Of a stretch of 32,000 bases of DNA, positions 7,683-27,244 are shown piece after piece; position 1 is the first letter of the stretch, and each line of letters starts with the position of its first letter. Made by a program: the position numbers and the translations under genes. This DNA is from an uncultured Chloroflexia bacterium (GTDB taxonomy: Bacteria > Chloroflexota > Anaerolineae > Anaerolineales > Anaerolineaceae). Below the pieces are notes generated by a model. It had not been told where the DNA came from, ran no database searches, and saw nothing but the letters and a program-made list of their open reading frames with translations. Location: the NCBI GenBank assembly GCA_963704755.1, contig OY969938.1, positions 2,280,001 to 2,312,000 on the forward strand, read 5' to 3'.

Positions 7683-7717
7683 ACCAGGAGCTGGAGTAGT
7701 TACACAGAACAAATGAT

Positions 7718-8323: not shown

Positions 8324-8399
8324 ACAGGGGGCATCTTATCACAAATCGGGCCAGATTGCGAGGTCGAGAGGCGCAGGATAAGGCAAGGGACGCTTTAAT

Positions 8400-8645
8400 C
8401 CGTCCAGGCTGTGATCGGTGCCCCTCTCCTGTCCGATGTAGGGGCGAAGCCGGTCGCCGGGTTGGATGACTTGGATGGCCACTTATGTGAAACCGCTATG
8501 TTCTGGCCGGGTCTACGACAGCTAAAGCTGCACCTACAACTACACGAAGACCCACCTGCGTGGGTCTCCCTTTCGAAAAAAGCCGGTTCCATGGACAGGG
8601 TTTTGAGGGGCCGGCGTTCTCTCGGGTTGGAAACCCGAGCTGACT
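8400..8645 (-). repeat. Dispersed fifth copy (inverted orientation) of the 1383-2280 repeat unit
   Basis: The reverse complement of 8503-8640 reads GCTCGGGTTTCCAACCCGAG...GAGACCCACGCAGGTGGGTCTTCGTGTAGTTGTAGGTGCAGCTTTAGCTGTCGTAGACCCGG, which is the same core and hairpins as the array units. Confidence 0.85.
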
Positions 8646-8652
8646 TAATCCT

Positions 8653-10320: not shown

Positions 10321-10432
10321 CTGAGGCCAGTTGAGGCGTTTGAGTCACCGGCTGGTAGCCGCTTTGGGCGGCAACAAGGCCGGCAGAAACGGCTAACAGG
10401 ATAACTCCGGCGAAGATGGCTCCGATGCGCAT
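10302..10432 (-). other. Orphan signal-peptide-encoding 5' segment of the CAP gene, in a frame offset by one nucleotide
   Basis: ATG at 10432 has GGAG 11 nt upstream and encodes MRIGAIFAGVILLAVSAGLVAAQSGYQ..QLASDEVETVY. This frame meets the CAP frame at the A4/T4 run 10298-10301. Confidence 0.6.
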
Positions 10433-10577
10433 GCTTTGAACTTCTCCTGAAACGGTGTGGCTCACTGGCTTTTCCCGCCGAGCCAAAACTATTGTACTCT
10501 TTATCGGTGAATAAAGCGGTAAAAGATGTCGTTTATCGCAAATTCAGGGATATCCGTCTCCAGCCGCTGCCATTCCT

Positions 10578-10586
10578 GGTACAATG
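10578..10586 (+). promoter_or_regulatory. Candidate extended -10 promoter (TGgTACAAT) for the helicase gene
   Basis: TGGTACAAT at 10578-10586 ends 8 nt before the ATG at 10595, with no Shine-Dalgarno between them. This fits a leaderless transcript, but it is a pattern match only. Confidence 0.3.
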
Positions 10587-10594
10587 ATGCCCGT

Positions 10595-12820: not shown

Positions 12821-12821
12821 T

Positions 12822-12900
12822 GAAGAGAGATAAGAGAAGAGAGAGTAGAGAATAGTCGATAAGGCGACGAGTTGACGAGGCAACCAGGCAACAAGGGAGG
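12822..12900 (+). repeat. Left arm of an imperfect ~75-bp inverted repeat (GA-rich module plus octamer-periodic tract)
   Basis: GAGAGTAGAGAATAGTCGA...TTGACGAGGCAACCAGGCAACAAGG matches the reverse complement of 13375-13462. It starts 2 nt after the helicase stop. Confidence 0.8.
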
Positions 12901-13050
12901 ATAAAGTCAAAGGTGATCGGGCCGGTCTCCTGACCGAGCCCGCTCTTCAACGCCGTCATTTGTAGCGCGTAGGGTGGGCTAACGGGTAACAAGTCAATGA
13001 GGCAAAAAGGGAATAAGGCAACGAGGGGGATGAAGTCAGAGGGCAAAGGT

Positions 13051-13130
13051 GATCGGCCCGGTCTCCAGACCGAGGCCGCTCTTATTGGCCGGCCAGGAAG
13101 AGCGGCCTCGGTCTGGAGACCGGGCCGATC
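13051..13130. repeat. Perfect 33-bp-stem hairpin between convergent operons (possible bidirectional terminator)
   Basis: GATCGGCCCGGTCTCCAGACCGAGGCCGCTCTT (13051-13083) is the exact reverse complement of 13098-13130, with the 14-nt loop ATTGGCCGGCCAGG. A half-copy lies at 12915-12950. Confidence 0.85.
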
Positions 13131-13257
13131 GCTTTGACCAATCGGATGGGTCTTTAGTGTGCAATCCATTTACACAATTCGTTTGACATTCTCGGGAGGA
13201 ATAAATCAAAAGACGCAGTCCTTTTCCCTGGTTGCCTGATCGGCCAGCTACAAGCCG

Positions 13258-13316
13258 TTGGCCGGCGCTTCGCCCTCATCCCCCGGCCCCTTCTCCCAGA
13301 AACGGGAGAAGGGGTG
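13258..13316 (+). repeat. REP-like element GCCCTCATCCCC..CCCCTTCTCCCAGAAACGGGAGAAGGGG
   Basis: The 11-bp stem CCCCTTCTCCC/GGGAGAAGGGG spans 13287-13314. The same family occurs in reverse orientation at 29262-29310. Confidence 0.75.
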
Positions 13317-13374
13317 TCTTGCTACCAGAATGCTACGTTTGGCGGTGAAAATTGATCGACCTTTCACCTTATTG

Positions 13375-13462
13375 CCTTATCAACTTGTTGCCTTGTTGCC
13401 TCGTTGCCTCATCAACTTTTCGACTATTCTCTACTCTCTATTCTCTATTCTCTTCTTCTCTT
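13375..13462 (-). repeat. Right arm of the ~75-bp inverted repeat
   Basis: Its reverse complement reads GAGAGTAGAGAATAGTCGAAAAGTTGATGAGGCAACGAGGCAACAAGG, with octamer periodicity (CTTGTTGC x3). It abuts the hydrogenase large-subunit stop codon. Confidence 0.8.
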
Positions 13463-13465
13463 CCC

Positions 13466-14545
13466 TCACCGATCCGTACACGAATAACACGGGTCGATCG
13501 AGGCCTGGATGAGCGGCATGTCGGCTAACTGCTGGCCGGCGCTCATGGCCTGCACCGAGGGCATGTTCACGTAGGTTGGGGTGCGGATTTTGACCCGGTG
13601 GGGGATATCGCTGCCGTCGGAGGCCAGGTAATAGAACACCTCACCCCGCGGGGCTTCTGCCCGCGCAGTCCCTTCGCCCATCGGGACGGTGGGGTAGCGG
13701 TTCAACGACTGGATCGGGCCAGACGGCAGGTCTTGCAGCGCTTTTTCGATCAGGCGGACGCTCTCCAGCATTTCCAGCGCACGCACGACCAGGCGGGCCT
13801 GCACGTCCCCGGCGGTCTCAACGATTTTCTTGACCTCCAGCTCGCCGTAAGCGGCATAGGGCAAGTCACTGCGCACGTCGAAAGCGACCCCCGAGGCGCG
13901 GGCGGTCGGGCCGACCGTGCCGTAAGCCAGGGCATCCGCGCGGGTGAGCACCCCTACACCGGCCGTGCGCGCCTTAACCGTGCGATCGCTGGTGAAGATC
14001 GGGATGACCACTTTCTCGATGCTCTGACGTATTTTGCGGATCGCCGTCAGGATCGACTCGGGATCGCTGACATCGCGGTTGACCCCGCCGATACAGTTCA
14101 TGGCGTAATTGACCCGGTTACCCGAGATGGCCTCGAGCACATCCATGACCAGCTCGCGCACCGCAAAAACTTGCATGAACATGGTCTGGAAACCGATCAA
14201 TTCGGCGGCCACGCCGGCCCACAGCAGGTGCGAGTGCAGCCGTTCCAACTCGGCCATAATGACGCGAATGTAGGCCGCCCGCGGCGGCAGGTCGAGCCCG
14301 GCCACCGTTTCGGCGGCCATACAGAAGGTCATGGTGTGGACGTTGGAACAGATGCCGCACACGCGCTCGACCAGGGCCAGGTCCTGGATGTAGTTGCGGC
14401 GCTGGGCCAGCAGCTCGATCCCACGGAAGTTGAAGCCGATTTCGATATCCACATTCTGCACGGATTCGCCCTGGCAGAACACGTTAATTTTGTACGGCTC
14501 TTCCAACGCGGGGTGGTAAGGGCCAATAGGAATGATATATGGCAT
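13466..14545 (-). CDS. Group-4 [NiFe]-hydrogenase large subunit (NuoD/CooH/HycE-C/EchE-like)
   Basis: N-terminal Ni-Fe ligand motif RVCGICSNVH. The C-terminal motif DPCYSCTDR is followed directly by the stop codon. The start was chosen at the ATG at 14545 (MPYIIPIGPYHP, GAGGG 6 nt upstream, 8 nt after the upstream stop). The ORF extension to 14689 overlaps the upstream gene and is rejected. Confidence 0.9.
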   Translation of the reverse strand: MPYIIPIGPYHPALEEPYKINVFCQGESVQNVDIEIGFNFRGIELLAQRRNYIQDLALVERVCGICSNVHTMTFCMAAETVAGLDLPPRAAYIRVIMAELERLHSHLLWAGVAAELIGFQTMFMQVFAVRELVMDVLEAISGNRVNYAMNCIGGVNRDVSDPESILTAIRKIRQSIEKVVIPIFTSDRTVKARTAGVGVLTRADALAYGTVGPTARASGVAFDVRSDLPYAAYGELEVKKIVETAGDVQARLVVRALEMLESVRLIEKALQDLPSGPIQSLNRYPTVPMGEGTARAEAPRGEVFYYLASDGSDIPHRVKIRTPTYVNMPSVQAMSAGQQLADMPLIQASIDPCYSCTDR

Positions 14546-14553
14546 GATACCCT

Positions 14554-14976
14554 CTATTGTTTCCCTTCTGCCCCGCCTGGTTCTCGGAAAATACCGGGCT
14601 CCATTCGAGCGGGAAGGATCAGCCGCTCCGTGGTGGGGCGGCCGCTGAACTCGACCCGGTATAAATCCCAGATTTCGCGCTCGATCCAATCCGCCGCCGG
14701 CAGGACGGCGCTGATCGAGGGCAGGGCGTTCTTTTGGGTGGTCACTTTAAAGTTGAAGCACTGCCGGTCGAGACAATAATGGTAAATGACCTCGGTTTCG
14801 TCGCCGGGCAAGGGAGCAGCCGTGATGGTGCTCAAGCGGGCTTCCCAATCCAGCATACAGCGGGCCGCCGCCACCACGTCCAGGGCCGGGGCGGACATCC
14901 ACCAGCCATCGCGGTGTTGAATCAGTTCCGTCGCGCCGGGTAAGCTGCGGATCTGGCTCTTGAGTTCAGTGGCCAT
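14554..14976 (-). CDS. Hydrogenase NuoC/CooU-like subunit
   Basis: 140 aa with AADWIEREIWDLYRVEFSGRP, matching the NuoC 30-kDa-subunit signature (EREixDxxGixF). Confidence 0.8.
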   Translation of the reverse strand: MATELKSQIRSLPGATELIQHRDGWWMSAPALDVVAAARCMLDWEARLSTITAAPLPGDETEVIYHYCLDRQCFNFKVTTQKNALPSISAVLPAADWIEREIWDLYRVEFSGRPTTERLILPARMEPGIFREPGGAEGKQ

Positions 14977-15493
14977 GCTTGCCTCCGTTCCATTCCATCG
15001 CGTCCAGGAAATGCTGGCCGGTCAGTTTCTGGCGGCAGCGCTCGCACAACCCGCGCGTCTCAGCGATGGCCTCGGGCAGCGGATCGCCGTAAAGGTGCGT
15101 CAGGGTCTCCTCGGGCAGCGCATGGACCGGCTGGCCGCACTCCCGGCACAACGGATAATCCTTTTCCAGAACCTGGACCAGTTCTTTGCGCTCCAGGTAT
15201 ACCGGCGGGCGTTCAGCCTCCATGCTCAGGGCGCCCATCGGGCAATATTCAGCGCAGCGCCCGCAAAAAGTGCACCGGCCGGGGTCGTAGCTCCATTCGT
15301 AACCCTTGCCATGATCGCTAACGGTGATCGCGGACGGGGAGCACACGTAGGCGCAGGTGCCGCAGCCGATACAGCGCTCCAGGTCGTTCTGCACCAGCCC
15401 GCGCAGGCCTTCGGCGGGAATTACCCGCTCGGGGAAAGGCAGTGTCACCGGCCCCTCCCGCATATTTTCCAGGATCATTTGCAGAATATTCAT
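14966..15493 (-). CDS. Hydrogenase 2x[4Fe-4S] subunit (NuoI/CooX/HycF-like) with extra C-terminal CxxC...CxxC
   Basis: CIGCGTCAYVCSP and CTFCGRCAEYCPMGA ferredoxin motifs, plus an additional CRECG...(31 aa)...CERC pair near the C-terminus. Confidence 0.85.
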   Translation of the reverse strand: MNILQMILENMREGPVTLPFPERVIPAEGLRGLVQNDLERCIGCGTCAYVCSPSAITVSDHGKGYEWSYDPGRCTFCGRCAEYCPMGALSMEAERPPVYLERKELVQVLEKDYPLCRECGQPVHALPEETLTHLYGDPLPEAIAETRGLCERCRQKLTGQHFLDAMEWNGGKHGH

Positions 15494-15494
15494 A

Positions 15495-16415
15495 TTACAA
15501 ACCTCTCCCTGCCAGGAATCCCGCTGCCAGCAAAGCCAGCGCCGCGACGATGAACCCCCAGCGGCTGTAGAAGCGCACCGCCTGGGTAATTTTCAGGCGG
15601 GCCGTCCCGGCCGCCAGGGCTGCCAGCAGCCATACCAGCAGCAGGGAAACGCCCACAAACAGGAGCAGGTCGAGCGGCCACAAACCGGTGCGTGGCAGGA
15701 GCAGGCAGGTGAAAAAGCCGGTCAGGGTCACCCATTCCAGGCCGTGGGCCAGCTCCCAAAGAGCCAACTGCGGGCCGCCGTATTCGGTCAGCGGGCCGGC
15801 GTAGATTTCCTGTTCGGCGTTGGGCTGAGAGAAGGGGTTGAGGCGCAGCTTGGCCGGCAGGCACAGCAGAATGGCCAGCAAAGCCAGGCCCCGTCCCAGG
15901 CTGAGCGGCGCAGCGGCCAGCCCGGAAAGCTGCAAGGTGTGCGCATCCACCGCCAGGGCCACAATCGCCATCAGGAAGGCCAGGTTATAGGTAATGCTCA
16001 AGACGGCCTCACGCACCGAGCCGATCTCGGCGAACAGCGAGCGCGAGGAGAACCCGGACAGCACGCTGCAAATCGAGGGCAGTTCCAGCAGAGCCACCAA
16101 CAGCACCAGGTCGCCGGCGAAGCCGCCGCCGGAGAGGGTGAACACCGGCAGCAGGGCCAGGGCTCCGGTCAGCGAGGCCAGCGCCAGCACCGGCCAGAAG
16201 GCCATCAGCTTGCCGTCCAGGCCGGGACGGGTCGGGCCGGTTTTGGCCATCAGCTTGACGAAATCGAAGAAGGGCTGCATGAAGGGCGGGCCGATGCGCC
16301 GTTGAAAACGGGCCTCGGTTTTGCGTTCCAGCCACAGCATCAGCCAGCCGGCCGGCAGGGCATACAGCAGGCCGGGAAAGACCAGGGTTGCAAAAAGCGC
16401 CGTTCCCAGGTTCAT
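15495..16415 (-). CDS. Hydrogenase membrane subunit (NuoH/CooK/HycD-like)
   Basis: 306 aa, polytopic, with LERKTEARFQRRIGP (the NuoH-type ERKxxxxxQxRxGP motif) near the N-terminus. Confidence 0.85.
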   Translation of the reverse strand: MNLGTALFATLVFPGLLYALPAGWLMLWLERKTEARFQRRIGPPFMQPFFDFVKLMAKTGPTRPGLDGKLMAFWPVLALASLTGALALLPVFTLSGGGFAGDLVLLVALLELPSICSVLSGFSSRSLFAEIGSVREAVLSITYNLAFLMAIVALAVDAHTLQLSGLAAAPLSLGRGLALLAILLCLPAKLRLNPFSQPNAEQEIYAGPLTEYGGPQLALWELAHGLEWVTLTGFFTCLLLPRTGLWPLDLLLFVGVSLLLVWLLAALAAGTARLKITQAVRFYSRWGFIVAALALLAAGFLAGRGL

Positions 16416-16879
16416 GATAGGGCCTCCTTCAGCACCGGCCGGGATGACTTGCTCGCCAGGATGTCTACCGCCTTCGCGATACCCTCGATGATCGCGTCCG
16501 GGCGGGGCGGACAGCCGGGCACGTACACGTCCACCGGGATGTAGCGGTCCAGCGGGCCGGCCACCACCGGGCTGCCGGCAAACACGTTGCAGGAAGCCGG
16601 GCAGGAGCCCAGCGCCACCACCACCTTGGGCTCGGGTACCTGGGCATAGACCGTCAGCAGGGCGTCCAGGGAATTGCAGGTGACCGGCCCGGTGATGACC
16701 AGGATATCGGCGTGCCGCGGGCTGCCCTGCAGGCGGATGCCCAACTGCTCCACGTCGTAGCGCGGGGTCAAGCAGGCCACCAGCTCGATGTCGCAGCCGT
16801 TGCAGGCGCCGGTATTGAGGTGGTAAAGCCAGGGGCTGCGTCGCCGGGATTGTTCGACCAGATTATCGATAAAACTCAT
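16412..16879 (-). CDS. Group-4 [NiFe]-hydrogenase small subunit (NuoB/CooL/HycG-like)
   Basis: 155 aa with Cys ligands in GACNGCDIE, GSCPASC and YVPGCPPRP (the NuoB-type proximal cluster pattern). It has no Tat signal, so it should face the cytoplasm. Confidence 0.88.
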   Translation of the reverse strand: MSFIDNLVEQSRRRSPWLYHLNTGACNGCDIELVACLTPRYDVEQLGIRLQGSPRHADILVITGPVTCNSLDALLTVYAQVPEPKVVVALGSCPASCNVFAGSPVVAGPLDRYIPVDVYVPGCPPRPDAIIEGIAKAVDILASKSSRPVLKEALS

Positions 16880-16883
16880 TCTG

Positions 16884-19800
16884 CTATCCTCCCAGCAGCC
16901 TGGAAAAGGCGTTCACCATTTCCGGCCAGATGCCGGCGGCCAATAAGGCCAGGATCAGGACCAGCATGACGGCATTCAGCGCAGCCAGCCGGGCCGGGGA
17001 TGAGCCGCCCTCCGCCGAAGGCTCGCCCCACCAGAAGATCACCAGCGCCCGCGCGTAAGCCAACAAGGCCATGCCCGAGGCCAGCAAGAAAGCGAACAGC
17101 AGCCAGGGGCTTCCGTAGGCGGCGGCAGCGGCGTACAACTGCCAGCGGGCGGCGAAACCCCAGGTAGGCGGCACACCCAGCATGGCCAGCATCCCAACCA
17201 GGAAGGCCGCCCCGGCCAGGGGATAACGGGAGGCCATGCCGTGTTTGTCCAGGGTAGGCGCGCCTTCCGTTTCCGGGCCGGACAGGCTGGCAAACAGCAG
17301 GGCCTTGGCCAGGGCGTGCACCATGATGCCCGTCAGAGCGCCGGAAAGCCCCCACTGGCCGGCGGCAAAGACACCCAGCACCAGGTAGCCCATATCTTCG
17401 ATGGTAGAGAAAGCCAGCAGACGCTTGAGATCGCGCTGGGCCAGCATCAGCAGCGCGCCACCCAGCGAGGAGAGCAGCGCCAGCGCCAGCCACAGCCCGG
17501 AGACCGCGGCGAACACGCCGCTGCTGCTGAGCAGCCACAACTCGCCAAAGGCGGACACATCCACCACCGAGATGACCAGGCCGATCACCAGGGCCGGGGT
17601 GGCAGCCGCAGCCTGAGGCAGCCAAAGGTACAGCGGCACCAGGGCCAGCTTGATAGCGAAACCGGCCAGCAGCAGGGCCGCCGCCCAGGTGACCTGGCCG
17701 GCGCTCAAGAGCAGGTTGCCCGCGACAACGGACACAATCGAAATCAGCATGGCGGCCAGGTAGGCCCGGCTGGCGATGCGGTCCTGGCTGCTGCGCCAGA
17801 CCAGCAGCAGGGCAGCCAACGACGAACATTCCAAAAGCGCCAGGCGCAAGACCGGGTTGGCCGAAGCCAGCCCGCCCACGGCCAGGACGCCGCTCAAAGC
17901 CATCAGCGGCAGCCGGGAGCGGACACCGGGCAGCGCTGCGGCGGAGACCAACAAAGCCAGGCAGGCCAGCCCGGCTGCAATAGTAAGAATAAGCGGGATG
18001 GAGCCGCTTTCAGTGCTCACAGCCCCAGCCGCGGGGGCGAAGGGCAGGACCGCGACGACCGCCGCCAGGCTGAAGGCCAGCAAAAACGCCACGGCGCGCC
18101 GTTCCAGCCAGGCGCCGGCCCGGCCAACCGAACTGCTCAAGCGCAATAAAGCATGCCAGACGGCCAGGTAATAGCGGTCCATGTCGAACCAGGTGTAGAA
18201 GGGCGCCAGGTTGTGCTTGATGATGGCCGAAAAGTCGCTGGCCGGCAGATGAGCCGACCCGCGCAGCGGTTCGCCGCCGGTGAACACACCGCCCCAGGCG
18301 GCTTCAGCCGCGCCGGCGCCCGAAGCGACGGCCACAACCTGGTGGCCGCGTTGGGTCAGATAATAGACCAGCCCGCCGCCGCCCAGGGCCACCACGGCCA
18401 AAACCAGCCCGCCGGTGCTCCACCAGCTCCCGGTGGCGGTAGTCAGGCCAAACCAGGTCACCTGCGTCACCGGGGTCATACCCAGGCCGGCCAGCACCGG
18501 GTTGATCAGGTATTGGATGGGCAGTTGCGGAGCAACACCCAGCACCAGGCTGACCGCCGCCATGGCGCCCATGCCCCAGCGCATCACCAGCGGCACTTCG
18601 TGGATTTCTTTGGAATCAGGGGTGGTTTCGACACCCAGGAATACTGAGCTGGTGGCCTTCATGAAGTAGAAGACCGTCAGCACACTGACGAACCAGGACA
18701 CCAGTGCCGGGATGATTTGTCCGGATTCGAGCGCGGCATTGTAGAGCAGCCATTTGCTAACAAAACCGCTCAGCAAGGGGATGCCGGAGATGGCCCCGGC
18801 ATTGATCAGCCAGAAGACGGTCGTGTGCGGCATACGCCGCGCCAACCCGCCCAATTGGTTCATATCTCTGGTGCCGGTTTCATGTTGTACCGAACCGGCC
18901 CCCAGGAACAGGCCGCCCTTGAAGAAGCCGTGGTTGAGGCAGTGCAGCAGCCCGGCGGCGATGCCCAGGGGTGTACCCAGGCCCAAGCCGAGCATCATGT
19001 AGCCGATCTGGCTAATGGTGCTGAAGGCCAGCATCCGTTTCAAATCGGTCTGGACCATGGCATACAACACCCCTACCAGCATGGTGACGGTTCCGATCCA
19101 GATGACGATATTGCTCCAGGCGGTTGGCCAGGCCCCCAGGCTGTGCAGGCGGGCCACCAGGTACACCCCGGCTTTAACGTAACAGGCCGCATGCAGCAGC
19201 GCACTGACCGGAGTCGGCGCGGCCATCGCATCCGGGATCCAGGTGTGCAGCGGGAACTGCACCGACTTGGCCACGGCGGCCACCAGGATAAGCAGGAACA
19301 GCCCGGTCGTCACGGCGCCGCCCAGGTTGGGGTCGGTCCACAGGATTGTGCCGGTACGGGTGTAAATCAGCAAGATGGCGGCCAGCAGGCCGTAACCGGC
19401 CAGGTGAGTCATCACCAGCACCTTGCGGGCCCCGCGGACGGCGTCCTTTTGCTGGTACCAGAAACTCACCAGCAGGAACGAGCACAATCCGATCACTTCC
19501 CAGCTCAGGTAGAAGACCAGCAGGTTGGCCGAATAGACCAGGTGAACCAGCCCACCGATAAAGACCAGCATCAGGATATAAAATCGGGTCGAGCCGGGAT
19601 CATCGGCCATGTAGCCGATCGAGTACAGCAGGATGGCAGCGCCGATAGCGGTGCCCATGAACGCGAACAGCAGGCTCAACCCATCCACGTGGTATGCCAG
19701 CGCCAGGGGGCCATCCCAGGTCAGCGCCGTCCAATCCAACGATCCGCCGCCCTGGATGGGAAAGGCTGCCGCGACCACACTGCCCAGGGCAGCCAGGCAG

Positions 19801-19913
19801 GCTACAAAGGCCAGCCAGCCTTTACTCTTGGCGGAGAGCCAACGTCCCAGGACGAATTGCAGCAGGATGCCGACGCCGAGCATGCCAAATGGCAAAATAA
19901 CATATTTTTCCAC
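16884..19913 (-). CDS. Fused double antiporter-like membrane subunit (CooM / NuoL-HycC-like plus NuoN/M-like)
   Basis: 1009 aa, GTG start with GGAGG 6 nt upstream. Module 1 has LSWEVIGLCSFLLVSFW, AKSVQFPLHTWIPDAMAAPTPVSALLHAA, LAFSTISQIGYM and HGFFKGGLFL. Module 2 (from about aa 620) has AIKLALVPLYLWLPQAAAATPALV, LAFSTIEDMGYL and HALAKALLFA. Confidence 0.85.
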   Translation of the reverse strand: MEKYVILPFGMLGVGILLQFVLGRWLSAKSKGWLAFVACLAALGSVVAAAFPIQGGGSLDWTALTWDGPLALAYHVDGLSLLFAFMGTAIGAAILLYSIGYMADDPGSTRFYILMLVFIGGLVHLVYSANLLVFYLSWEVIGLCSFLLVSFWYQQKDAVRGARKVLVMTHLAGYGLLAAILLIYTRTGTILWTDPNLGGAVTTGLFLLILVAAVAKSVQFPLHTWIPDAMAAPTPVSALLHAACYVKAGVYLVARLHSLGAWPTAWSNIVIWIGTVTMLVGVLYAMVQTDLKRMLAFSTISQIGYMMLGLGLGTPLGIAAGLLHCLNHGFFKGGLFLGAGSVQHETGTRDMNQLGGLARRMPHTTVFWLINAGAISGIPLLSGFVSKWLLYNAALESGQIIPALVSWFVSVLTVFYFMKATSSVFLGVETTPDSKEIHEVPLVMRWGMGAMAAVSLVLGVAPQLPIQYLINPVLAGLGMTPVTQVTWFGLTTATGSWWSTGGLVLAVVALGGGGLVYYLTQRGHQVVAVASGAGAAEAAWGGVFTGGEPLRGSAHLPASDFSAIIKHNLAPFYTWFDMDRYYLAVWHALLRLSSSVGRAGAWLERRAVAFLLAFSLAAVVAVLPFAPAAGAVSTESGSIPLILTIAAGLACLALLVSAAALPGVRSRLPLMALSGVLAVGGLASANPVLRLALLECSSLAALLLVWRSSQDRIASRAYLAAMLISIVSVVAGNLLLSAGQVTWAAALLLAGFAIKLALVPLYLWLPQAAAATPALVIGLVISVVDVSAFGELWLLSSSGVFAAVSGLWLALALLSSLGGALLMLAQRDLKRLLAFSTIEDMGYLVLGVFAAGQWGLSGALTGIMVHALAKALLFASLSGPETEGAPTLDKHGMASRYPLAGAAFLVGMLAMLGVPPTWGFAARWQLYAAAAAYGSPWLLFAFLLASGMALLAYARALVIFWWGEPSAEGGSSPARLAALNAVMLVLILALLAAGIWPEMVNAFSRLLGG

Positions 19914-20015
19914 GAGCGCCTCCGGATATGGCTGGGCCAGCCAGGCCCTCTCCTGGCACCTGGCTGGCCCAAAGCTAAGAGCTACCGACTAAGGATCTTT
20001 CCGAAAATTGCTGCG

Positions 20016-20056
20016 AGTGTTTGTTTTGGGCGGCTTAGCGGCCCAAAACAAACACT
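20016..20056. repeat. AT-rich 16-bp-stem hairpin in the gap between the ferredoxin and hydrogenase genes
   Basis: AGTGTTTGTTTTGGGC (20016-20031) pairs with GCCCAAAACAAACACT (20041-20056), loop GGCTTAGCG. A second small hairpin TCCCGTT/AACGGGA lies at about 20094-20111. Confidence 0.8.
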
Positions 20057-20140
20057 TAGAAAATAGTCTCTTCCATTTCTAGTGGGGGGTATTTTCCCGT
20101 TCAAAACGGGAGAGCCAGAAAATATTATTTCGGATAGATA

Positions 20141-20623
20141 CTAAGCAGGATTGCCCAGAATGGCATCTTTCATTTTCGAGGCAAAATCTCTCTGGCGCGC
20201 TTTGTTTGAAACCGTATCGTCCACATATTCCAACGCATCCGAAGGGCACATCTGGACACAGGCCGGATCGCCATTGCAGGTATCGCATTTGAAAATGCTG
20301 TCAGTCAGGGCATCGTACACGGCATTGCCGAACGGGCAGGCCATGGTGCACATACGGCAGCGGATGCAACGATTGTCGTCCCACTCGACCAGGGCAGTAT
20401 CCGCGTTACGGTGCATGGCGCCGGTGGGGCAGACGGTCACGCAGGCGGCATCGCTGCAATGTTGGCAGAGCATCGGCACCGAAACTCCTTCGAACGCCCA
20501 GGAATAAACATGAACGCGCGAGGCGTCCAGCCGTTGGCTGCCTTCATGTTCAAATGCACAGGCCATCTCGCAAGCCTGGCAGCCCACGCATCGTTCAGGG
20601 TGGATCATTAAAATTTTAGCCAT
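20141..20623 (-). CDS. 4x[4Fe-4S] ferredoxin-like electron-transfer subunit (CooF/HycB family)
   Basis: 160 aa with 16 Cys in four groups: C12xxC15xxC18xxxC22, C53xxC56x4C61xxxC65P, C86xxC89xxC92xxxC96P and C113xxC116x5C122xxxC126P. GGAGG lies 6 nt upstream of the ATG. Confidence 0.88.
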   Translation of the reverse strand: MAKILMIHPERCVGCQACEMACAFEHEGSQRLDASRVHVYSWAFEGVSVPMLCQHCSDAACVTVCPTGAMHRNADTALVEWDDNRCIRCRMCTMACPFGNAVYDALTDSIFKCDTCNGDPACVQMCPSDALEYVDDTVSNKARQRDFASKMKDAILGNPA

Positions 20624-20658
20624 TCGTACCTCCTTTACAGAGCGATGATCACAAAATC

Positions 20659-23412
20659 CTAATAGATGGCTGGGACTGCAACAGCCTGTTCTTCAGCCTC
20701 AAGGGCGGCCAGTACTTTCGCCGGGCGGGCCGGCAATTCTTTGACGCGGGCGCCAGTGGCGTTCTTGATGGCGTTGATGATGGCAGCGTGCGGCGAGGTC
20801 AGCGGAAGCTCACCCACGCCGGCGGCGCCGAAGGGGCCATTCTCGCGGGGTGTCTCGACGTAGATGATGTCGATCTTATCCGGCACATCGCGGGCGAAGG
20901 GCACGCCGGCGCCCATCAGGGTGGAGTGCAGCTCGATGTCCTCGAAATCCTCGCTCAGCGCCAGGCCAACGCCCTGGGCCAGGCCGCCGTAAATCTGGCC
21001 GTCCACCACCAGTTTGTTGTTGATCTTGCCGACATCGGCCGCCAGGGTCAAGCCGGTCACCTTGGTCTTGCCGCTCTTGACGTCCACCGTGACTTCGGCC
21101 ATGAAGATGCCGTACATGTACACGGCAAAGGGGCTGCCCTGGGCAGTTTCCGAGTCGCAGTTGGTGTTCATCGAAGAAGCCCAACTGCCCTTATAGCGCA
21201 GCGGTAAGCCCTCTTCCACCATCTGGTCGTAGGTGCGGAATTTGCCATCTTTGATGCGCATGGCGGCGATCAGGTTTTCGCAGCCGTTCTTGATAGCATT
21301 GCCAACCATCACCTGGCTGCGGCTGCCGCCGGCCGGGCCACCGTTGAGGGTCTTGGCGGTATCGTTCATCACCAGCTTGATGACTTTCGGGTCCAGGCCG
21401 AGCGGGCGCAGGGCCTCGTGAGCCGTGCCGAGCACGCCCATATCGGCGCCCTGGCCGTGGTCGTGCCAGTTGGCATACACGGTCACGCCTTGTTTGGTCA
21501 GTTCGACTTCGATTTCGGCCCCATCCACGCCATCCAGGCCGCAGCCATAGATGCCGATGGAGATCCCCACGCCTTTCTTCTTCTCGGGGGTCGATTCGCG
21601 TTCCGCCCGTTCCAGGGCTTCCTGGTAGCGCGGGCGCAGCTTGTCGATCATCTCCGGCAGGGAGTAAACCTCGGGCGGCTGGCCGGTAGGGGTGGTATCG
21701 CCGGGGCGATAGACGTTCTGGTAGCGCAATTCGAGCGGGTCCATATCCATGGCTTCGGCCAGCTCATCGATCAGGCACTCGGAGGCGAACATACTTTCCG
21801 GTGCGCCGTAGCCGCGGAATGCGGCTCCCCAGGCATGATTGGTGCAGACCGTGCGGCCAATACCGCGGATGCTGGGAATGTTGTAACCGGCGCCGATAAA
21901 CTGAGCCCCCCGCAGAGTCAACAGGTCGCCAAACTCGGAGTAGGGGCCGTGGTCCACGGTCCAGTCGCTCTCCATCGCCAGCAACTTGCCTTTCGAATCG
22001 GCCGCCAGCTTGAGGTTGACAAAGAAAGGCGAGCGCTTGCCGGTGTAGGTCATGTACTGGTGGTAATCGTAAGTCAGCGAGACCGGGTGATTGGTGGCCA
22101 TGCAGGCCACGCCCAGCAGGGCCTCCATGGTCGGGGAGAATTTATAGCCAAATGTACCGCCGGCCGGGTTTTGCACCATGCGGATCTTCTCGGGCTCGAG
22201 GCCGATGCCGGGGGCGATCATCAGCAGATGCAGATACAGGCCGATGCTCTTGGAGTGGATGGTCAGCCGGCCTTCGCTGTCGAAATAGGCAAAGCCGGTA
22301 TCCGATTCGATGCTCATGTGCGGCTGGCGCTGGGTGTAGAAATTGTCCTCCACCACGTAAGCGGCTTTGTCCATGATCGGGGCCGTTTCTTCGCCCTTGA
22401 CGATCTTCTGTTCGAAGTAGATGTTCGGCGTGCCGGGATGGATTTCGATGGCGTCGTCTGACATGGCATCCGGCGCATTCATATAAGCCGGCAGCTCTTC
22501 CAGCTCCACTTTGACCTTATCGGCGGCGGCCCGGGCATGCGCTTCGGTGTCGGCGCAGACGATGGCAATGGCGTCGCCGAACTGGAACACCTTGGTATCG
22601 CACAGGATCGGCCGGTCCCAACCATCGCCCTTATTGGTCGAAAAAGTGATCAGGCCGGTAATGCGGTTCTTGCCTTTGACGTCTTTGTGGGTGACCACTT
22701 TGAAGACGCCCGGCATCTTCTCGGCTGCCGAGGTATCGATTGAAAGGATGTTGGCGTGCGAGACCTTGGCCTGCACCAGCGCCAACCGCAGGGTGTTAGC
22801 CGGCATCTTGAGCGCCAAATCCTGGCCGAAATCTAACGTGCCGGTCACTTTGGCTTTCGCGGTGGGGCGGGGATATTTGCTGCCCCAGACGTGGCCGTCC
22901 TTGGGCATCTTGTATTCCAGCTCGGTCTCGCTCATTTCGCCCCGCAGAACCTTGGCCGCGTCCATGATCGAATCGACGATCGGTTTGTAGCCGGTGCAGC
23001 GGCAGACGTTATGATGCTTGGTGAGCCAGGTGCGTACTTCTTCGCGGGTGGGGTCGGGGTTCTGGTCCAGCAGTGCTTTGGAGGAAACCACCATACCCGG
23101 CGTGCAGAAACCGCATTGGGCCGCGCCATGCACGATCATGGCTTTCTGGATGGGATGCATGTGATCCGGGGTGCCGATGCCTTCCACCGTCGTGATTTTG
23201 GCCCCATCCGGCACGCGTTTGGCCCGGGTTACGCAGGACAGGGTTAACCTGCCATCCACGATAACCGAACAGGCCCCGCAGTGACCATCATTGCAGGAGA
23301 CTTTCGTACCGGTCAACAAAAGCTGCTGGCGCAGTACATCCGCCAATGACGCATCCTCGGCAACCTCAATTGACCGGGACACGCCATTAATATTAAACAT
23401 TTTCTTTTGCAT
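20659..23412 (-). CDS. mop: Mop-type aldehyde oxidoreductase (xanthine oxidase family; 2x[2Fe-2S] plus Mo-pterin domains in one chain, no FAD domain)
   Basis: CNDGHCGACSV..C (plant-type 2Fe-2S), QCGFCTPGMV..CRCTGY (second 2Fe-2S), then GTFGYKFS, AFRGYGAP and the catalytic-Glu context AAGVGELPLTSPHAAIINAI. Length and domain order match my recollection of Desulfovibrio gigas Mop along the whole chain. The start was chosen at the ATG at 23412 (GGAGG 5 nt upstream); the ORF is open to 23433. Confidence 0.9.
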   Translation of the reverse strand: MQKKMFNINGVSRSIEVAEDASLADVLRQQLLLTGTKVSCNDGHCGACSVIVDGRLTLSCVTRAKRVPDGAKITTVEGIGTPDHMHPIQKAMIVHGAAQCGFCTPGMVVSSKALLDQNPDPTREEVRTWLTKHHNVCRCTGYKPIVDSIMDAAKVLRGEMSETELEYKMPKDGHVWGSKYPRPTAKAKVTGTLDFGQDLALKMPANTLRLALVQAKVSHANILSIDTSAAEKMPGVFKVVTHKDVKGKNRITGLITFSTNKGDGWDRPILCDTKVFQFGDAIAIVCADTEAHARAAADKVKVELEELPAYMNAPDAMSDDAIEIHPGTPNIYFEQKIVKGEETAPIMDKAAYVVEDNFYTQRQPHMSIESDTGFAYFDSEGRLTIHSKSIGLYLHLLMIAPGIGLEPEKIRMVQNPAGGTFGYKFSPTMEALLGVACMATNHPVSLTYDYHQYMTYTGKRSPFFVNLKLAADSKGKLLAMESDWTVDHGPYSEFGDLLTLRGAQFIGAGYNIPSIRGIGRTVCTNHAWGAAFRGYGAPESMFASECLIDELAEAMDMDPLELRYQNVYRPGDTTPTGQPPEVYSLPEMIDKLRPRYQEALERAERESTPEKKKGVGISIGIYGCGLDGVDGAEIEVELTKQGVTVYANWHDHGQGADMGVLGTAHEALRPLGLDPKVIKLVMNDTAKTLNGGPAGGSRSQVMVGNAIKNGCENLIAAMRIKDGKFRTYDQMVEEGLPLRYKGSWASSMNTNCDSETAQGSPFAVYMYGIFMAEVTVDVKSGKTKVTGLTLAADVGKINNKLVVDGQIYGGLAQGVGLALSEDFEDIELHSTLMGAGVPFARDVPDKIDIIYVETPRENGPFGAAGVGELPLTSPHAAIINAIKNATGARVKELPARPAKVLAALEAEEQAVAVPAIY

Positions 23413-23541: not shown

Positions 23542-23655
23542 GTAACTGCTCAGGCAGGTTCAGAAGGGATGGGTGTTTTTTTTATTGTTTTTGTGTACTT
23601 CGCACACAAAAACAATAAAAAACACCCGGTCCCTCCATAGCAGCTGAGTAGTTAC
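23542..23655. promoter_or_regulatory. Nested ~115-bp palindrome with an AT-rich ~25-bp stem in the divergent control region
   Basis: Inner arms GGGTGTTTTTTTTATTGTTTTTGTGT (23571-) and ACACAAAAACAATAAAAAACACCC (-23627) pair with a 2-nt bulge. Outer arms are GTAACTGCTCAG (23542-23553) and CTGAGTAGTTAC (23644-23655). Confidence 0.7.
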
Positions 23656-23925: not shown

Positions 23926-26256
23926 TTGGGAACTTTAATGGATCAAAAAGAAATGCACGACCTGGAAGCCGAATGCGTCCAGGAATGTGCCCCACCTTGC
24001 ACGGCAGCCTGCCCATTGCACGTAGATGTGCGTGCGTTGAACGCGGCCCTCAGCCAGGGCGACTTTTCCGCCGGTTTGCAGATCCTCAAAAAAAGCCTGC
24101 CTTTCCCCGGGATCATTGGCCGCATCTGCGAGCAGCCCTGCCGGGACGTCTGCCGGCGCAATGAAGCCATCGCGATTGCCAGCCTGGAGCGTGCCTGTGC
24201 GGACTGGGGCGAAACGGCCCCGGCCAAAAGCGGCACTCCAACGCTGCGTAAGCAGCGCGTTGCCATTGTCGGCGGGGGCCTGAGCGGCCTGACCGCTGCT
24301 TTCGATTTAGCCCGGAAGCGCTACAGTGTGGTGCTCTTCGAGGCCAGCGGCTACCTGGGCGGCAGCCTGTGGTCGCTGCCGGAAAGCCGCCTGCCGCGCC
24401 CGGTCATCGAGGCCGAAACGGCCCTGGTCGCCAAAATGGGTGTAGAAGTGCACCTGAACAGCCCGGTCAGTACCGAAGCCGGTTCGGGCAGCGTCTCTCT
24501 CTGGCAGCTCCAGCGTGATTTCGAAGCCGTTTACCTGGCGGTGGGGAGCCACCCGGCCGGGCGTTTTTCGTTTTCTTCCGATCCGGTCGACCCACTGACG
24601 TACGCCACCGGCCAGGAGGGCATCTTCGCCGGCGGTGAAATGCTGAAAAAGGATGGCCCGGTTTCGCCGGTCGCGGCCATGTCGGACGGGCGCCGGGCGG
24701 CCACCTCGATCGAGCGCTTCGTCCAGCGGGTTTCGCTGACCGCCTCGCGCGCCAACGAAGGCGCCTACGAAAGCTGCCTGTACACCAACACCGCGGGCCA
24801 GCCCGTTCTGCCGGTCACACCGGCCGGCCACACTGCCGCCGGCTACAGCCGGGAAGAAGCCCAAAGCGAAGCCGGCCGCTGCCTTCAATGCGAGTGCCTG
24901 GAATGCACCAAAGTGTGCGAATACCTGGCCCGTTTTGGCAGCTACCCGAAGAAATATATCCGCCAGATCTACAACAACCTGACCATCGTGATGGGCACCC
25001 GCTCGGCCAACAAGCTGATCAACTCGTGCAGTCTGTGCGGGCTGTGCGCCGAGGTTTGCCCGACCGACCTGGACATGGGAGCCCTGTGCAAGCAGGCCCG
25101 CCAGGTGATGGTGGCCCAGGGGCACATGCCCCCTTCGGCCCACGATTTCGCCTTACGCGATATGCAGTTCAGTAACAGCGCTAAATTTGCCCTGGCCCGC
25201 CACCAGCCGGGTAGCGAGACCAGCACGTATGTTTTCTTCCCCGGCTGCCAGCTCAGCGCCTCGGCCCCCGAGCAGGTGGAGCAGGTCTATGCCTACCTGC
25301 GCGAAAAGCTGTCCGGCGTGGGCCTGCTGCTGCGCTGCTGCGGCGCGCCGGCCGATTGGGCCGGGCGCAGCGACCTGGTCCAGGATAACCTGGCGGAACT
25401 CTCGGCCCAAATTGCCGCAATGGGCCACCCGCGCGTCATCCTGGCCTGTTCGAGCTGTTACCAGATCTTCAAGACCCGCCTGCCGGACGTCGAAATCGTC
25501 TCGCTGTGGGAGCTGTTCGAACAGCTCGGCCTGCCCCAGGGCGCTCCGCAGGGCAAGGACCGGGTGGTGGCCATCCACGACCCGTGTACCACCCGCTACG
25601 AATCGCATATTCAAGACAGCGTGCGCAGCCTGGTCGGCCGGCTGGGATACCGGGTCGAAGAGCTGCCCCTTAGCCGCGAGAAAACCACCTGCTGCAGCTA
25701 CGGGGGCGTGATGTGGCTGGCCAACCCGGAATTGGCCCAGGAAGTGGTCGAGCGGCGCATCAGCGCCAGCCCGGCCGATTACCTGACCTACTGCGCCATG
25801 TGCCGCGATTTCTTCGCCAACCACGGCAAGCGCACGCTGCACCTGCTCGACCTGGTCTTTGGCGGCGATTGGGATGCGCGGGCAACCCTTCCCGGGCCCG
25901 GCTACTCTCAACGGCACGAAAACCGGGCCAGGCTCAAACAAAAATTACTCAAAGAAGTCTGGGGTGAAACGATGACCGGACAAGAAGATTACGAATCGGT
26001 CCGCTTGGTGATCCCCGAGGACGTCGGGCAGCGCCTGGAAGACCGCCTGATCCTGGTCGAAGACATCCAGCGCGTGATTGCGTACGCCGAAAGGACCGGC
26101 CGCAAGTTCCGCCAGGCCCAGACCGGCCGCTTTCTGGCGCATTATTGCCCCACGCGGGTGACCTACTGGGTCGAGTATTCCCCCCAGGGAGATGCCTTCG
26201 AGGTCCACAACGCCTACAGCCACCGCATGGAAGTCGGGGAGGGCCAGAAATCATGA
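23926..26256 (+). CDS. Fusion oxidoreductase: GltD-like Fe-S/FAD module, HdrC-like 2x[4Fe-4S], two HdrB/GlcF-like CCG domains, and a C-terminal domain of unknown function
   Basis: N-terminal CxxxC..CP Fe-S region, a single dinucleotide fold VAIVGGGLSGLTAAFDL..FEASGYLGG, CLQCECLECTKVCEY and CSLCGLCAEVCP, then CCG motifs FFPGCQ...RCCGAP and HDPCTT...TCCSYGG. The start is ambiguous: TTG at 23926 or ATG at 23938. Confidence 0.85.
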   Translation: MGTLMDQKEMHDLEAECVQECAPPCTAACPLHVDVRALNAALSQGDFSAGLQILKKSLPFPGIIGRICEQPCRDVCRRNEAIAIASLERACADWGETAPAKSGTPTLRKQRVAIVGGGLSGLTAAFDLARKRYSVVLFEASGYLGGSLWSLPESRLPRPVIEAETALVAKMGVEVHLNSPVSTEAGSGSVSLWQLQRDFEAVYLAVGSHPAGRFSFSSDPVDPLTYATGQEGIFAGGEMLKKDGPVSPVAAMSDGRRAATSIERFVQRVSLTASRANEGAYESCLYTNTAGQPVLPVTPAGHTAAGYSREEAQSEAGRCLQCECLECTKVCEYLARFGSYPKKYIRQIYNNLTIVMGTRSANKLINSCSLCGLCAEVCPTDLDMGALCKQARQVMVAQGHMPPSAHDFALRDMQFSNSAKFALARHQPGSETSTYVFFPGCQLSASAPEQVEQVYAYLREKLSGVGLLLRCCGAPADWAGRSDLVQDNLAELSAQIAAMGHPRVILACSSCYQIFKTRLPDVEIVSLWELFEQLGLPQGAPQGKDRVVAIHDPCTTRYESHIQDSVRSLVGRLGYRVEELPLSREKTTCCSYGGVMWLANPELAQEVVERRISASPADYLTYCAMCRDFFANHGKRTLHLLDLVFGGDWDARATLPGPGYSQRHENRARLKQKLLKEVWGETMTGQEDYESVRLVIPEDVGQRLEDRLILVEDIQRVIAYAERTGRKFRQAQTGRFLAHYCPTRVTYWVEYSPQGDAFEVHNAYSHRMEVGEGQKS

Positions 26257-26462
26257 GCGAAGTACCGCAAGGGACGCCCGGCGAATGGCTATGCGCGAAC
26301 TGTAACTTGCCTTTGCAGCCCGGACAGATCACCGTGGCTTACCTGGGGAATTCCTACCCGGTCAGCCTGCTGCGCTGCCCCAACTGCGGCCTGGTCCTGG
26401 TGCCGGAAGACCTGGCGCTGGGCAAAATGGCCGAGGTGGAGAAAGCCCTGGAAGATAAATAA
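26253..26462 (+). CDS. Small zinc-ribbon / rubredoxin-like protein (DVU_1557-like, by recollection)
   Basis: 69 aa with CANC...(22 aa)...CPNC. Its ATG overlaps the upstream TGA (ATGA at 26253-26256). The longer ORF from 26145 is rejected. Confidence 0.7.
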   Translation: MSEVPQGTPGEWLCANCNLPLQPGQITVAYLGNSYPVSLLRCPNCGLVLVPEDLALGKMAEVEKALEDK

Positions 26463-26473
26463 CAGGCGCCCCG

Positions 26474-27196: not shown

Positions 27197-27244
27197 TGGC
27201 CCTGGCGGACAAAACCGCAGGGCGTTTGCACAGGAGGTTTAGCC

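Follow-up and report, generated by a model that had tools for sequence, protein, structure and literature searches.

Where do the electrons for a membrane-bound [NiFe]-hydrogenase come from when its genes stand behind those of a molybdenum aldehyde oxidoreductase and a polyferredoxin? This question is raised by a stretch of 32,000 nucleotides (the window; positions 2,280,001 to 2,312,000 of contig OY969938.1) from an uncultured bacterium of the family Anaerolineaceae. Eight intact open reading frames (ORFs) run co-directionally on the minus strand of the window from 23412 to 13466. The original prediction had taken the product of the first gene, a Mo aldehyde oxidoreductase, to be the input module of a hydrogenase built in the style of formate hydrogenlyase (FHL) or of the Coo system. 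This idea is supported by synteny, by the placement of xdhC and mocA in related loci, by the exchange of input modules among these loci and by a docking tail. We consider it probable that the products of the eight genes form a single 'aldehyde hydrogenlyase' in the membrane. What the analysis shows directly are the identities of the parts, their conserved linkage, the exchange of input modules and the existence of the docking tail.

Organization of the operon

The positions and spacings originally given for the eight genes proved exact when the coordinates were compared. From mop to the gene of the hydrogenase large subunit, the intergenic spacings are 35, 227, 4, -4, 1, -11 and 8 nt, and the operon is composed as follows.

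20659–23412, minus strand: mop, single-polypeptide Mo aldehyde oxidoreductase of the molybdopterin cytosine dinucleotide (MCD) type, 917 aa (NF045668, Pfam, Desulfovibrio gigas MOP 1sij)
20141–20623, minus strand: polyferredoxin of the WorS/AorA type, 160 aa, four [4Fe-4S] clusters, C-terminal helix (PDB matches, AlphaFold2, Foldseek)
16884–19913, minus strand: double antiporter-like membrane subunit (CooM-like), 1009 aa (PF00361 twice and PF00662)
16412–16879, minus strand: NuoB-like hydrogenase small subunit (PF01058, Oxidored_q6)
15495–16415, minus strand: NuoH-like membrane subunit (PF00146, NADHdh)
14966–15493, minus strand: NuoI/HycF-like subunit with two [4Fe-4S] clusters, 175 aa (match to HycF 7z0s_F)
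14969–15193, minus strand: C-terminal extension of the NuoI-like subunit, residues 101–175, proposed docking element for the polyferredoxin (alignment to HycF)
14554–14976, minus strand: NuoC-like (CooU-like) subunit (PF00329, Complex1_30kDa)
13466–14545, minus strand: group-4 [NiFe]-hydrogenase large subunit, 359 aa (PF00346 and PF00374, Complex1_49kDa and NiFeSe_Hases)

The family matches of the eight gene products, all on intact ORFs, are far beyond chance. The nearest named relatives are Anaerolineae, with Longilinea arvoryzae at 83% identity in the large subunit, together with many metagenome-assembled genomes (MAGs) of 'Anaerolineaceae' and Chloroflexota. Related loci, numbered here with an L, were collected by scanning species-representative genomes and metagenomes with an alignment of the large subunit and taking 10-kb flanks, and were annotated by tblastn with all of the window proteins and with reference AOR (aldehyde oxidoreductase), CooS, CooF and AdhE sequences.

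The molybdenum aldehyde oxidoreductase

Pfam assigns to the first product the domains Fer2, Fer2_2, Ald_Xan_dh_C and MoCoBD_1/2, and an FAD domain is missing. Its score of 1644 bits for the NCBIfam equivalog NF045668 ('molybdopterin-dependent aldehyde oxidoreductase') exceeds the cut-off of 1100, and the protein matches D. gigas MOP (1sij_A) over the full length (residues 3–906, 1432 bits), as expected of an orthologue-grade relative. The motifs AFRGYGAP at 531 and GVGELPL at 865 are both kept in homologues, and we take them to correspond to Arg533 and the catalytic Glu869 of MOP, respectively. The eight cysteines of the two [2Fe-2S] clusters (40, 45, 48, 60, 100, 103, 137 and 139) are likewise invariant in homologues. 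Pfam, NF045668, 1sij and the motifs therefore all bear out the 917-residue chain of two [2Fe-2S] clusters and a Mo domain, with no FAD domain, that had been recognized at the outset. The start codon at 23412 (ATG) is favoured over that at 23433, because AAGGAGG lies 5–7 nt upstream and the homologues begin with MQKK or MLKK. Oxidation of aldehydes with an MCD cofactor is the likely activity of this enzyme, with indirect support from xdhC and mocA in the operons of relatives.

Paralogues of Mop occur apart from hydrogenases, in L082/L083 and, as a further stand-alone copy, in L. arvoryzae. Hydrogenase-linked Mop differs from the paralogues only by a C-terminus that is 7–10 aa longer and by a one-residue insertion, and these differences are not decisive. 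The polyferredoxin gene is absent beside the paralogues of L081–L083 and was seen here only at hydrogenase-linked Mop loci. In the closest relative, L165 (a 5.37-Mb contig), gene calling divides mop (1241–3993) into two ORFs of 159 aa (Fe-S part) and 749 aa (Mo part), because the gene is truly split or because the assembly contains a frameshift.

The polyferredoxin

The second product has 16 cysteines in four groups. The original description of these as four [4Fe-4S]-type groups stands, but its CooF/HycB-like label has to be replaced, since WorS and AorA are closer and HycB is a weaker match. Among PDB entries, WorS (9mqx_E) is matched with 6e-43, AorA (8c0z_C) with 1e-35 and HycB (7z0s_B) with 1.5e-20; the Fe-S subunit of Pyrococcus furiosus WOR5 is also among the best solved relatives, ahead of HycB. 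Residues 138–156 form a C-terminal helix in the AlphaFold2 model (pLDDT 79), and a Foldseek search with this model places WorS first (TM 0.75–0.80, 45–46% identity), AorA next and HycB after it. The protein is thus a polyferredoxin of the WorS/AorA type, the 'nanowire' partner of tungsten AORs, and not of the CooF/HycB type. In WorABCSL, such a polyferredoxin polymerizes by its C-terminal helix into a conducting wire that bears tungsten AOR subunits (PMC12318220), and the same polymerization by the C-terminal helix into an electron-conducting wire with tungsten AOR subunits is described for AorABC (PMC10413684). The window encodes no protein with the AFOR_N and AFOR_C domains; Mop stands in that place.

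The hydrogenase and its proposed docking tail

The large subunit carries the motifs RVCGICSNVH at 61 and DPCYSCTDR at 351–359, the latter forming the C-terminus. Its four Ni-Fe ligands (Cys63, Cys66, Cys353 and Cys356) are invariant among 14 homologues, and its best solved relatives are MbhL (6cfw_L, 297 bits) and HycE (247 bits), in agreement with the earlier assignment of this NuoD-like protein, from both ligand pairs, to a hydrogenase and not to complex I. No residues follow the second CxxC pair; therefore, a C-terminal processing peptide is not expected. The NuoB-like subunit has Cys26, Cys29, Cys93 and Cys123 at the usual ligand positions of one proximal [4Fe-4S] cluster, and the antiporter-like subunit contains two Proton_antipo_M stretches; in L084 and L165 this subunit is split into two genes. 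By its large, small, NuoH-like and antiporter-like subunits, the enzyme is a group-4 [NiFe]-hydrogenase. It may be Coo-like (4c-like), as hinted indirectly by the sister loci that are linked to CooS and by the report of group-4 hydrogenases of peat Acidobacteria as 4a/4c (PMC6018796). A stand-alone, ferredoxin-dependent Ech type was also considered and is ruled out by the doubled antiporter-like subunit, the adjoining polyferredoxin and Mop and the docking tail; the automatic JGI name 'ech hydrogenase subunit E' is generic.

The NuoI-like subunit matches HycF (7z0s_F) with 3.7e-16 over residues 9–155. In the full-length alignment, the Cys quartet of its tail (Cys116, Cys119, Cys150 and Cys153) forms two CxxC pairs that fall on the two of HycF. 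The HycF motifs are C117/C120/C155/C158, and the extension that holds them binds HycB and faces FdhF in FHL (PMC9474812). A PDB search with the 73-aa tail alone gave nothing significant, and the correspondence with HycF emerges only with the full-length sequence. The distribution of the tail follows that of the input module. Among the fetched loci, every one with a Mop, AOR or CooS module has the Cys quartet (21/21). When only loci sampled over at least 3 kb to either side are compared, the tail is found in 15/15 with a module and in 1/47 without one, giving a Fisher p of ~2e-13, a value that is overstated because the absences come mostly from one clade and phylogeny is uncorrected. Stand-alone hydrogenases have Ala/Pro-rich tails in place of the quartet. 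We propose that the Cys-quartet tail of the NuoI-like subunit is a HycF-type docking element for the polyferredoxin. The sole fully sampled exception is L027, from an uncultured Eubacteriales MAG, in which the NuoI-like gene (upstream of 10001) encodes the quartet and no recognizable Mop, AOR or CooS module was found in the 4 kb upstream and the 10 kb downstream.

Conservation of the linkage and exchange of the input module

The closest hydrogenases are those of L001 (L. arvoryzae), L002–L004, L084 and L165, with large subunits 80–84% identical to that of the window. The original prediction had suggested looking in other genomes for conserved synteny of Mop-like, CooF-like and group-4 hydrogenase genes, and it is found in all of these loci: the genes for Mop, the polyferredoxin and the antiporter-like, NuoB-, NuoH-, NuoI-, NuoC- and NuoD-like subunits are collinear, with Mop 80–91% and the polyferredoxin 69–82% identical, and the gap between the polyferredoxin and antiporter-like genes is only 15–100 nt. 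The seventh Mop-type locus recovered, the short contig L085, covers the NuoI-, NuoC- and NuoD-like genes and the start of xdhC. Behind the large-subunit gene, xdhC follows co-directionally in L001–L003, L084, L085 and L165, under the NCBIfam name 'XdhC family aldehyde oxidoreductase maturation factor'. It is then followed by mocA, the gene of the MCD cytidylyltransferase, in L001–L003 and L084, and it is preceded by other Mop accessory genes (DUF364, AMP-binding) in L165. The hydrogenase genes thus lie enclosed by mop on one side and the genes for its maturation on the other. At the AOR, CooS and stand-alone loci examined, xdhC was found at none.

The same hydrogenase clade includes loci of an AOR type and of a CooS type, with large subunits 59–69% identical to that of the window. 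Twelve loci (L008, L009, L010, L012, L096, L099, L100, L109, L112, L115, L118 and L123) combine a polyferredoxin 55–68% identical to that of the window with a tungsten AOR, for which the best PDB match is WorL (9mqx_D, 795 bits); CooF and CooS are found at four others (L006, L011, L095 and L106). Most loci have the input module upstream of the hydrogenase genes, but L096 and L106 have it downstream, and thus the linkage survived rearrangement. In a derived clade of Acidobacteriaceae, the hydrogenase stands alone, in many cases with adhE immediately upstream. A neighbour-joining tree, which carries no support values, groups the Mop-linked enzymes in a single clade whose sister is the AOR-linked clade of the Levilinea type; the AOR and CooS types are interspersed. 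The simplest history is that a hydrogenase 'socket' swapped its input modules several times and that Mop displaced the tungsten AOR once, with the AorA-type polyferredoxin kept.

Two observations were made beside this comparison. In L008 (Levilinea saccharolytica, 1923–11077), the hydrogenase operon contains a WorS/AorA-like polyferredoxin and a WorL-like AOR, and the AOR gene is followed by a MoaD-like ORF ending in GG. The adhE gene, for a bifunctional aldehyde/alcohol dehydrogenase, lies upstream in L013, L025, L119, L125, L134, L136, L144, L147, L148, L153 and L160, from Acidobacteriaceae of peat and soil; the hydrogenases that it adjoins have neither the polyferredoxin nor the Cys-quartet tail, and this is another recurrent tie to acetaldehyde metabolism.

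Mosaic origin of the operon

By comparison with L165, L001, L093 and L006, the operon of the window is a recombinant mosaic of two lineages, with breakpoints near 19760 and 15195. Mop, the polyferredoxin, residues 1–50 of the antiporter-like subunit, the NuoI-like tail and the NuoC- and NuoD-like subunits are 66–92% identical to those of L165. The block between (residues 51–1009 of the antiporter-like subunit, the NuoB- and NuoH-like subunits and residues 1–100 of the NuoI-like subunit) shows 32–82% identity to L165 per 50-residue fragment, or 48% overall for the antiporter-like and NuoH-like subunits and 67% for the NuoB-like subunit, and it is closer to L093 or L006 (40–92%) in almost every fragment. 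The two parts of the NuoI-like subunit differ accordingly: residues 1–100 are 37–49% identical to the L165 lineage versus 62–74% to the other, and the tail (101–175) is 69% identical to L165 versus 44% to L093. The tail was thus kept with the polyferredoxin/Mop lineage through the recombination, as would be expected if it and the polyferredoxin are interaction partners, although this could be coincidence.

The site at which relatives carry xdhC and mocA is occupied in the window by a further feature.

12813–13466, no strand assigned: non-coding palindromic element 3' of the operon, with 83-nt inverted repeats

This 654-nt element fills the whole space between a uvrD-like gene and the large-subunit gene, exactly where xdhC–mocA lie in the relatives. 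Its inverted repeats are 80% complementary, and it has a central 45+45-nt palindrome (13046–13135) and short tandem repeats. It could be an insertion resembling a miniature inverted-repeat transposable element (MITE) or a deletion scar.

The gap between the polyferredoxin and antiporter-like genes

The widest spacing within the operon contains two strong hairpins and has a fold z-score of -6.6 against shuffles.

19914–20140, minus strand: intergenic region between the polyferredoxin and hydrogenase genes, 227 nt (alignment with relatives)
20017–20055, minus strand: hairpin with a 16-bp stem, within the window-specific insertion (missing from L165 and L001–L003)
19934–19970, minus strand: conserved hairpin 5' of the ribosome-binding site and GTG start of the antiporter-like gene (alignment of Mop-type loci)

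The hairpin-containing gap is present as originally noted, and its reading as a possible operon break needs correction: in the alignment with L165 and L001–L003, ~150 nt of it, including the hairpin at 20017–20055, are an insertion specific to the window, against the 15–100 nt of the relatives. The hairpin at 19934–19970 is homologous in L165, L001–L003 and L084. Its consensus 14-bp stem is found in 6/7 Mop-type loci, with 7/14 pairs changed on both sides (compensatory), and it lies directly 5' of the GGAGG and GTG of the antiporter-like gene; a U-tract is at most short and offset. This hairpin may be an intra-operon attenuator or a transcript-stability element, and it could set a surplus of Mop and polyferredoxin over the membrane module. 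The gaps of 65–75 nt in relatives leave little room for a separate promoter, and together with the conserved hairpin they hint, at the level of sequence, at co-transcription. Between 12500 and 24500, no Rfam family reached the threshold, and the only sub-threshold matches were of miRNA type on long hairpins; thus, the gap holds no known riboswitch or leader. Consensus scans, which are weak evidence for Chloroflexota, gave no sigma-70-like site for the minus strand of the gap and scored neither of its hairpins as a canonical minus-strand terminator.

Surrounding genes

Upstream of mop, the window continues with a divergent operon and a regulatory gene pair.

23926–29202, plus strand: divergent operon, canonical Mop neighbourhood ('DVU_155x' NCBIfam families)
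23926–26256, plus strand: pyridine nucleotide-disulfide oxidoreductase (PNDO)/dicluster protein, GltD/HdrD-like (NCBIfam NF045663, 1049 bits)
about 26283–26462, plus strand: DVU_1557-family redox protein (NCBIfam)
26474–27196, plus strand: DVU_1556-family methyltransferase (NCBIfam)
27292–29202, plus strand: radical-SAM protein TrsS (NCBIfam)
29344–31823, minus strand: LuxR-type response regulator (29344–29985) and GAF/HisKA_3 sensor kinase (29982–31823)

The families of the divergent operon are those of the 'DVU_155x' Mop neighbourhood of Desulfovibrio, to which the relatives add XdhC_rel_AOR and MocA. They also lie beside Mop in L084 (4469–9678) and in L082/L083 (12874–21863 in L082); in the latter, they are co-directional behind the hydrogenase-free Mop paralogue, with the PNDO/dicluster protein directly next to it. 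The TrsS ORF of the window has 636 aa, with ~190 extra N-terminal residues; a separate C_GCAxxG_C_C protein is found there in L084. The GltD/HdrD-like neighbour was also considered as an AorC-like NAD module of Mop. This was rejected, as it belongs to the separate, divergent and conserved DVU_155x set, and we retain it only within the co-regulation alternative discussed below. Mop and the divergent operon are separated by 513 nt, within which lies a long, near-perfect, AT-rich palindrome (23552–23646) that could serve as an operator for both or as a terminator-like structure acting in both directions. The kinase/regulator pair adjoins hydrogenase clusters of Anaerolineae with Mop, AOR or CooS alike (1908–4342 in L084, 9–1654 in L006 and 7–1716 in L008; also in L009 and L010), whereas the loci checked from outside the Anaerolineae lack it.

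Proposed electron route and alternative explanations

From the parts and their linkage, we infer a physical complex, a direction of electron flow, a substrate and ion pumping. First, the Mo-pterin site of cytoplasmic Mop would convert an aldehyde and H2O to the carboxylic acid, and the two electrons would exit through the two [2Fe-2S] clusters of the enzyme. They would then run along the four [4Fe-4S] clusters of the WorS/AorA-type polyferredoxin, for which the NuoI-like subunit would provide the dock in its HycF-like Cys-quartet tail. From there, the route would lead through the two [4Fe-4S] clusters of the NuoI-like subunit and the proximal cluster of the NuoB-like subunit to the [NiFe] site, where protons would be reduced to H2. 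Finally, the NuoH-like and double antiporter-like subunits may couple the reaction to ion export. The oxidation of acetaldehyde (about -580 mV) with H+/H2 (-414 mV) as the acceptor couple yields ~-32 kJ/mol under standard conditions, by textbook potentials. A plausible role of the complex would be to dispose of aldehyde-level reducing equivalents as H2, for example from NADH and acetyl-CoA by way of acetaldehyde to acetate and H2; an ALDH-AOR (aldehyde dehydrogenase and AOR) route has been described in acetogens (PMC11996240). Detoxification of aldehydes is a possible alternative role.

Several points weigh against this proposal. The complex itself, aldehyde-dependent H2 evolution and ion translocation are all deduced from genes. 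In D. gigas MOP, the [2Fe-2S] clusters have potentials of about -260 to -285 mV, above that of H+/H2 at 1 bar, and H2 would therefore form most readily when its pressure is low. To our knowledge, polyferredoxins of the WorS/AorA type are partners of tungsten AORs only, and we know of no precedent for the docking of a xanthine-oxidase-family enzyme on one. The association between tail and module goes back to few independent gains or losses, chiefly in the derived Acidobacteria clade, and has its exception in L027. The Mop linkage traces to a single acquisition, because the Mop-linked enzymes form one clade. The copy in the window is a mosaic of two lineages, includes the hairpin-rich gap of 227 nt and has no xdhC–mocA within the 32 kb. 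Finally, Mop keeps its canonical neighbourhood, in which the PNDO/dicluster protein could be its usual redox partner.

The alternative that survives best, although we consider it unlikely, draws on this last point. Mop and the hydrogenase would be co-regulated neighbours: soluble Mop with its polyferredoxin would reduce a ferredoxin or flavodoxin, or the PNDO/dicluster protein, and the hydrogenase would be a separate, ferredoxin-dependent enzyme of the Ech/Coo-like kind. It fits with D. gigas MOP, which works in vitro through soluble carriers, with the stand-alone versions of the same hydrogenase clade in Acidobacteria and with the structured gap in the window. The PNDO/dicluster protein, moreover, is a conserved Mop neighbour and directly follows the L082/L083 paralogue that has no polyferredoxin or hydrogenase. 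However, separate enzymes would not explain the HycF-type tail, which occurs in all of the module-linked hydrogenases and is missing in the stand-alone ones, nor the gaps of 15–100 nt in relatives, nor the position of xdhC, with mocA in four loci, behind the hydrogenase genes. The confinement of the polyferredoxin to hydrogenase-linked Mop loci, with none at the L081–L083 paralogues, also speaks for the hydrogenlyase.

It is improbable that the window holds a decaying or non-functional recombinant, or that Mop acts on a non-aldehyde such as an N-heterocycle. The block from another lineage (antiporter-like subunit from residue 51 to the end, NuoB-like, NuoH-like and NuoI-like 1–100), the loss of xdhC–mocA with a palindromic element in their place and the extra insertion in the gap could be signs of decay, as could the two mop ORFs of L165, the closest relative, and it is not settled what Mop-type enzymes act on physiologically. 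On the other hand, all eight ORFs are intact with every cofactor ligand conserved, recombination left the matching partners (tail, polyferredoxin, Mop and the NuoC- and NuoD-like subunits) together, and the tungsten AOR in the same slot of the sister loci, a broad-spectrum aldehyde enzyme, points to aldehydes.

Least probable of all is reverse operation, in which H2, possibly with an ion gradient, would drive the reduction of an acid to the aldehyde and then to the alcohol, since the reduction of acids with H2 is strongly endergonic (E0' ~-580 versus -414 mV) and, as far as we know, Mop-type enzymes have not been reported to reduce acids. In its favour, tungsten AORs reduce acids, and that of Aromatoleum aromaticum even uses H2 directly (PMC9295118; PMC10413684), FHL is reversible (PMC9474812) and AdhE adjoins related hydrogenases in Acidobacteria, whereas cultured Anaerolineae are described as H2-producing fermenters (PMC5481317).

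The hydrogenlyase reading may be extended beyond the window, and we hold this extension more tentatively than the reading itself. The loci might represent a modular 'aldehyde hydrogenlyase' family in Anaerolineae, some Acidobacteriota and other metagenomic lineages. Its members would be composed of a Coo-like group-4 'socket', formed by the HycF-type metal-binding tail of the NuoI-like subunit, a WorS/AorA-type polyferredoxin plug that is possibly a multi-head nanowire, and a head that is either a tungsten AOR or the non-homologous Mop displacing it, and together they would perform an ion-pumping, H2-evolving aldehyde respiration. In combination with an acylating aldehyde dehydrogenase, such a complex would enable fermenters to convert NADH into H2 with no need of electron bifurcation.

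Comparison with known systems

We compared the proposed complex with four known systems. E. coli FHL-1 (FdhF, HycB and HycCDEFG; 7z0s) has in common with it the path from a soluble Mo enzyme through a polyferredoxin with four [4Fe-4S] clusters and the NuoI-like and NuoB-like subunits to the [NiFe] site, as well as the membrane arm of NuoH-like and antiporter-like subunits and the C-terminal Cys-quartet extension of HycF. There are four differences. The input of the window system is a Mo-MCD enzyme of the xanthine-oxidase family and not a formate dehydrogenase with Mo and bis-molybdopterin guanine dinucleotide (bis-MGD); its large subunit is unfused to the NuoC-like domain and ends at the last Ni ligand motif; its polyferredoxin is nearer to WorS/AorA than to HycB; and its antiporter-like subunit is doubled.

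CooMKLXUH from Rhodospirillum rubrum and Carboxydothermus hydrogenoformans has the subunit set of the window: besides a large, double antiporter-like subunit, both include subunits of the NuoH-, NuoB-, NuoI- and NuoC-like kinds and a NuoD-like one that is short. The genes run in the order M-L-K-X-U-H in the window, compared with M-K-L-X-U-H in the Coo system. The sister loci L006, L011, L095 and L106 do carry CooF and CooS; unlike these, the window has no CooS, and its polyferredoxin is 36–37% identical to their CooF.

WorABCSL of Acetomicrobium mobile (9mqx) and AorABC of A. aromaticum (8c0z) share with the window system the type of polyferredoxin, including the C-terminal helix, and aldehyde oxidation as the reaction, and a complete WorSL-like pair stands ahead of the hydrogenase genes in the sister loci. 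The catalytic subunit in the window, however, is a Mo enzyme, Mop, in place of the tungsten bis-pterin AOR, and the electron sink would be a membrane [NiFe]-hydrogenase in place of the bifurcating BfuABC core or an FAD/NAD subunit. As far as we know, Desulfovibrio MOP, of which the window enzyme is a full-length relative, is a soluble homodimer with no dedicated polyferredoxin or adjoining group-4 hydrogenase; here, in contrast, the polyferredoxin gene and seven reading frames of the hydrogenase are placed between mop and xdhC–mocA.

In the open-access papers and preprints searched in full text, no Mop- or AOR-linked group-4 hydrogenase was described, an absence that is not proof. This suggests that a hydrogenlyase driven by Mop is so far undescribed, while the hydrogenlyase design itself is known from FHL and Coo. 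The nearest published systems are the WorABCSL/AorABC nanowires, FHL, Coo and a Mop-like protein that is strongly induced in H2-producing, Hyf-containing Sulfurospirillum (PMC6242987).

Implications

If the proposed complex exists, aldehydes would be a new substrate class for the hydrogenases related to complex I. The known hydrogenlyases take one-carbon donors, formate or CO. Mop-type enzymes, whose partner in vivo has been unclear since the 1990s, would gain a physiological electron acceptor, and the polyferredoxin-linked tungsten AORs would gain a membrane partner. The pair of Mo and W heads would provide a clean natural case of the displacement of one catalytic subunit by a non-homologous one on a conserved electron-transfer scaffold. 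The clusters are carried by the cultured type strains L. arvoryzae KOME-1 (Mo) and L. saccharolytica KIBI-1 (W), and the idea is therefore directly testable. The system may also be of use for the production of H2 from aldehydes or, in reverse, for the H2-driven reduction of acids. For the fermentative and syntrophic Anaerolineae, which abound in digesters, paddy soils and sediments, the complex would offer a means of releasing electrons of the aldehyde level as H2 with conservation of energy.

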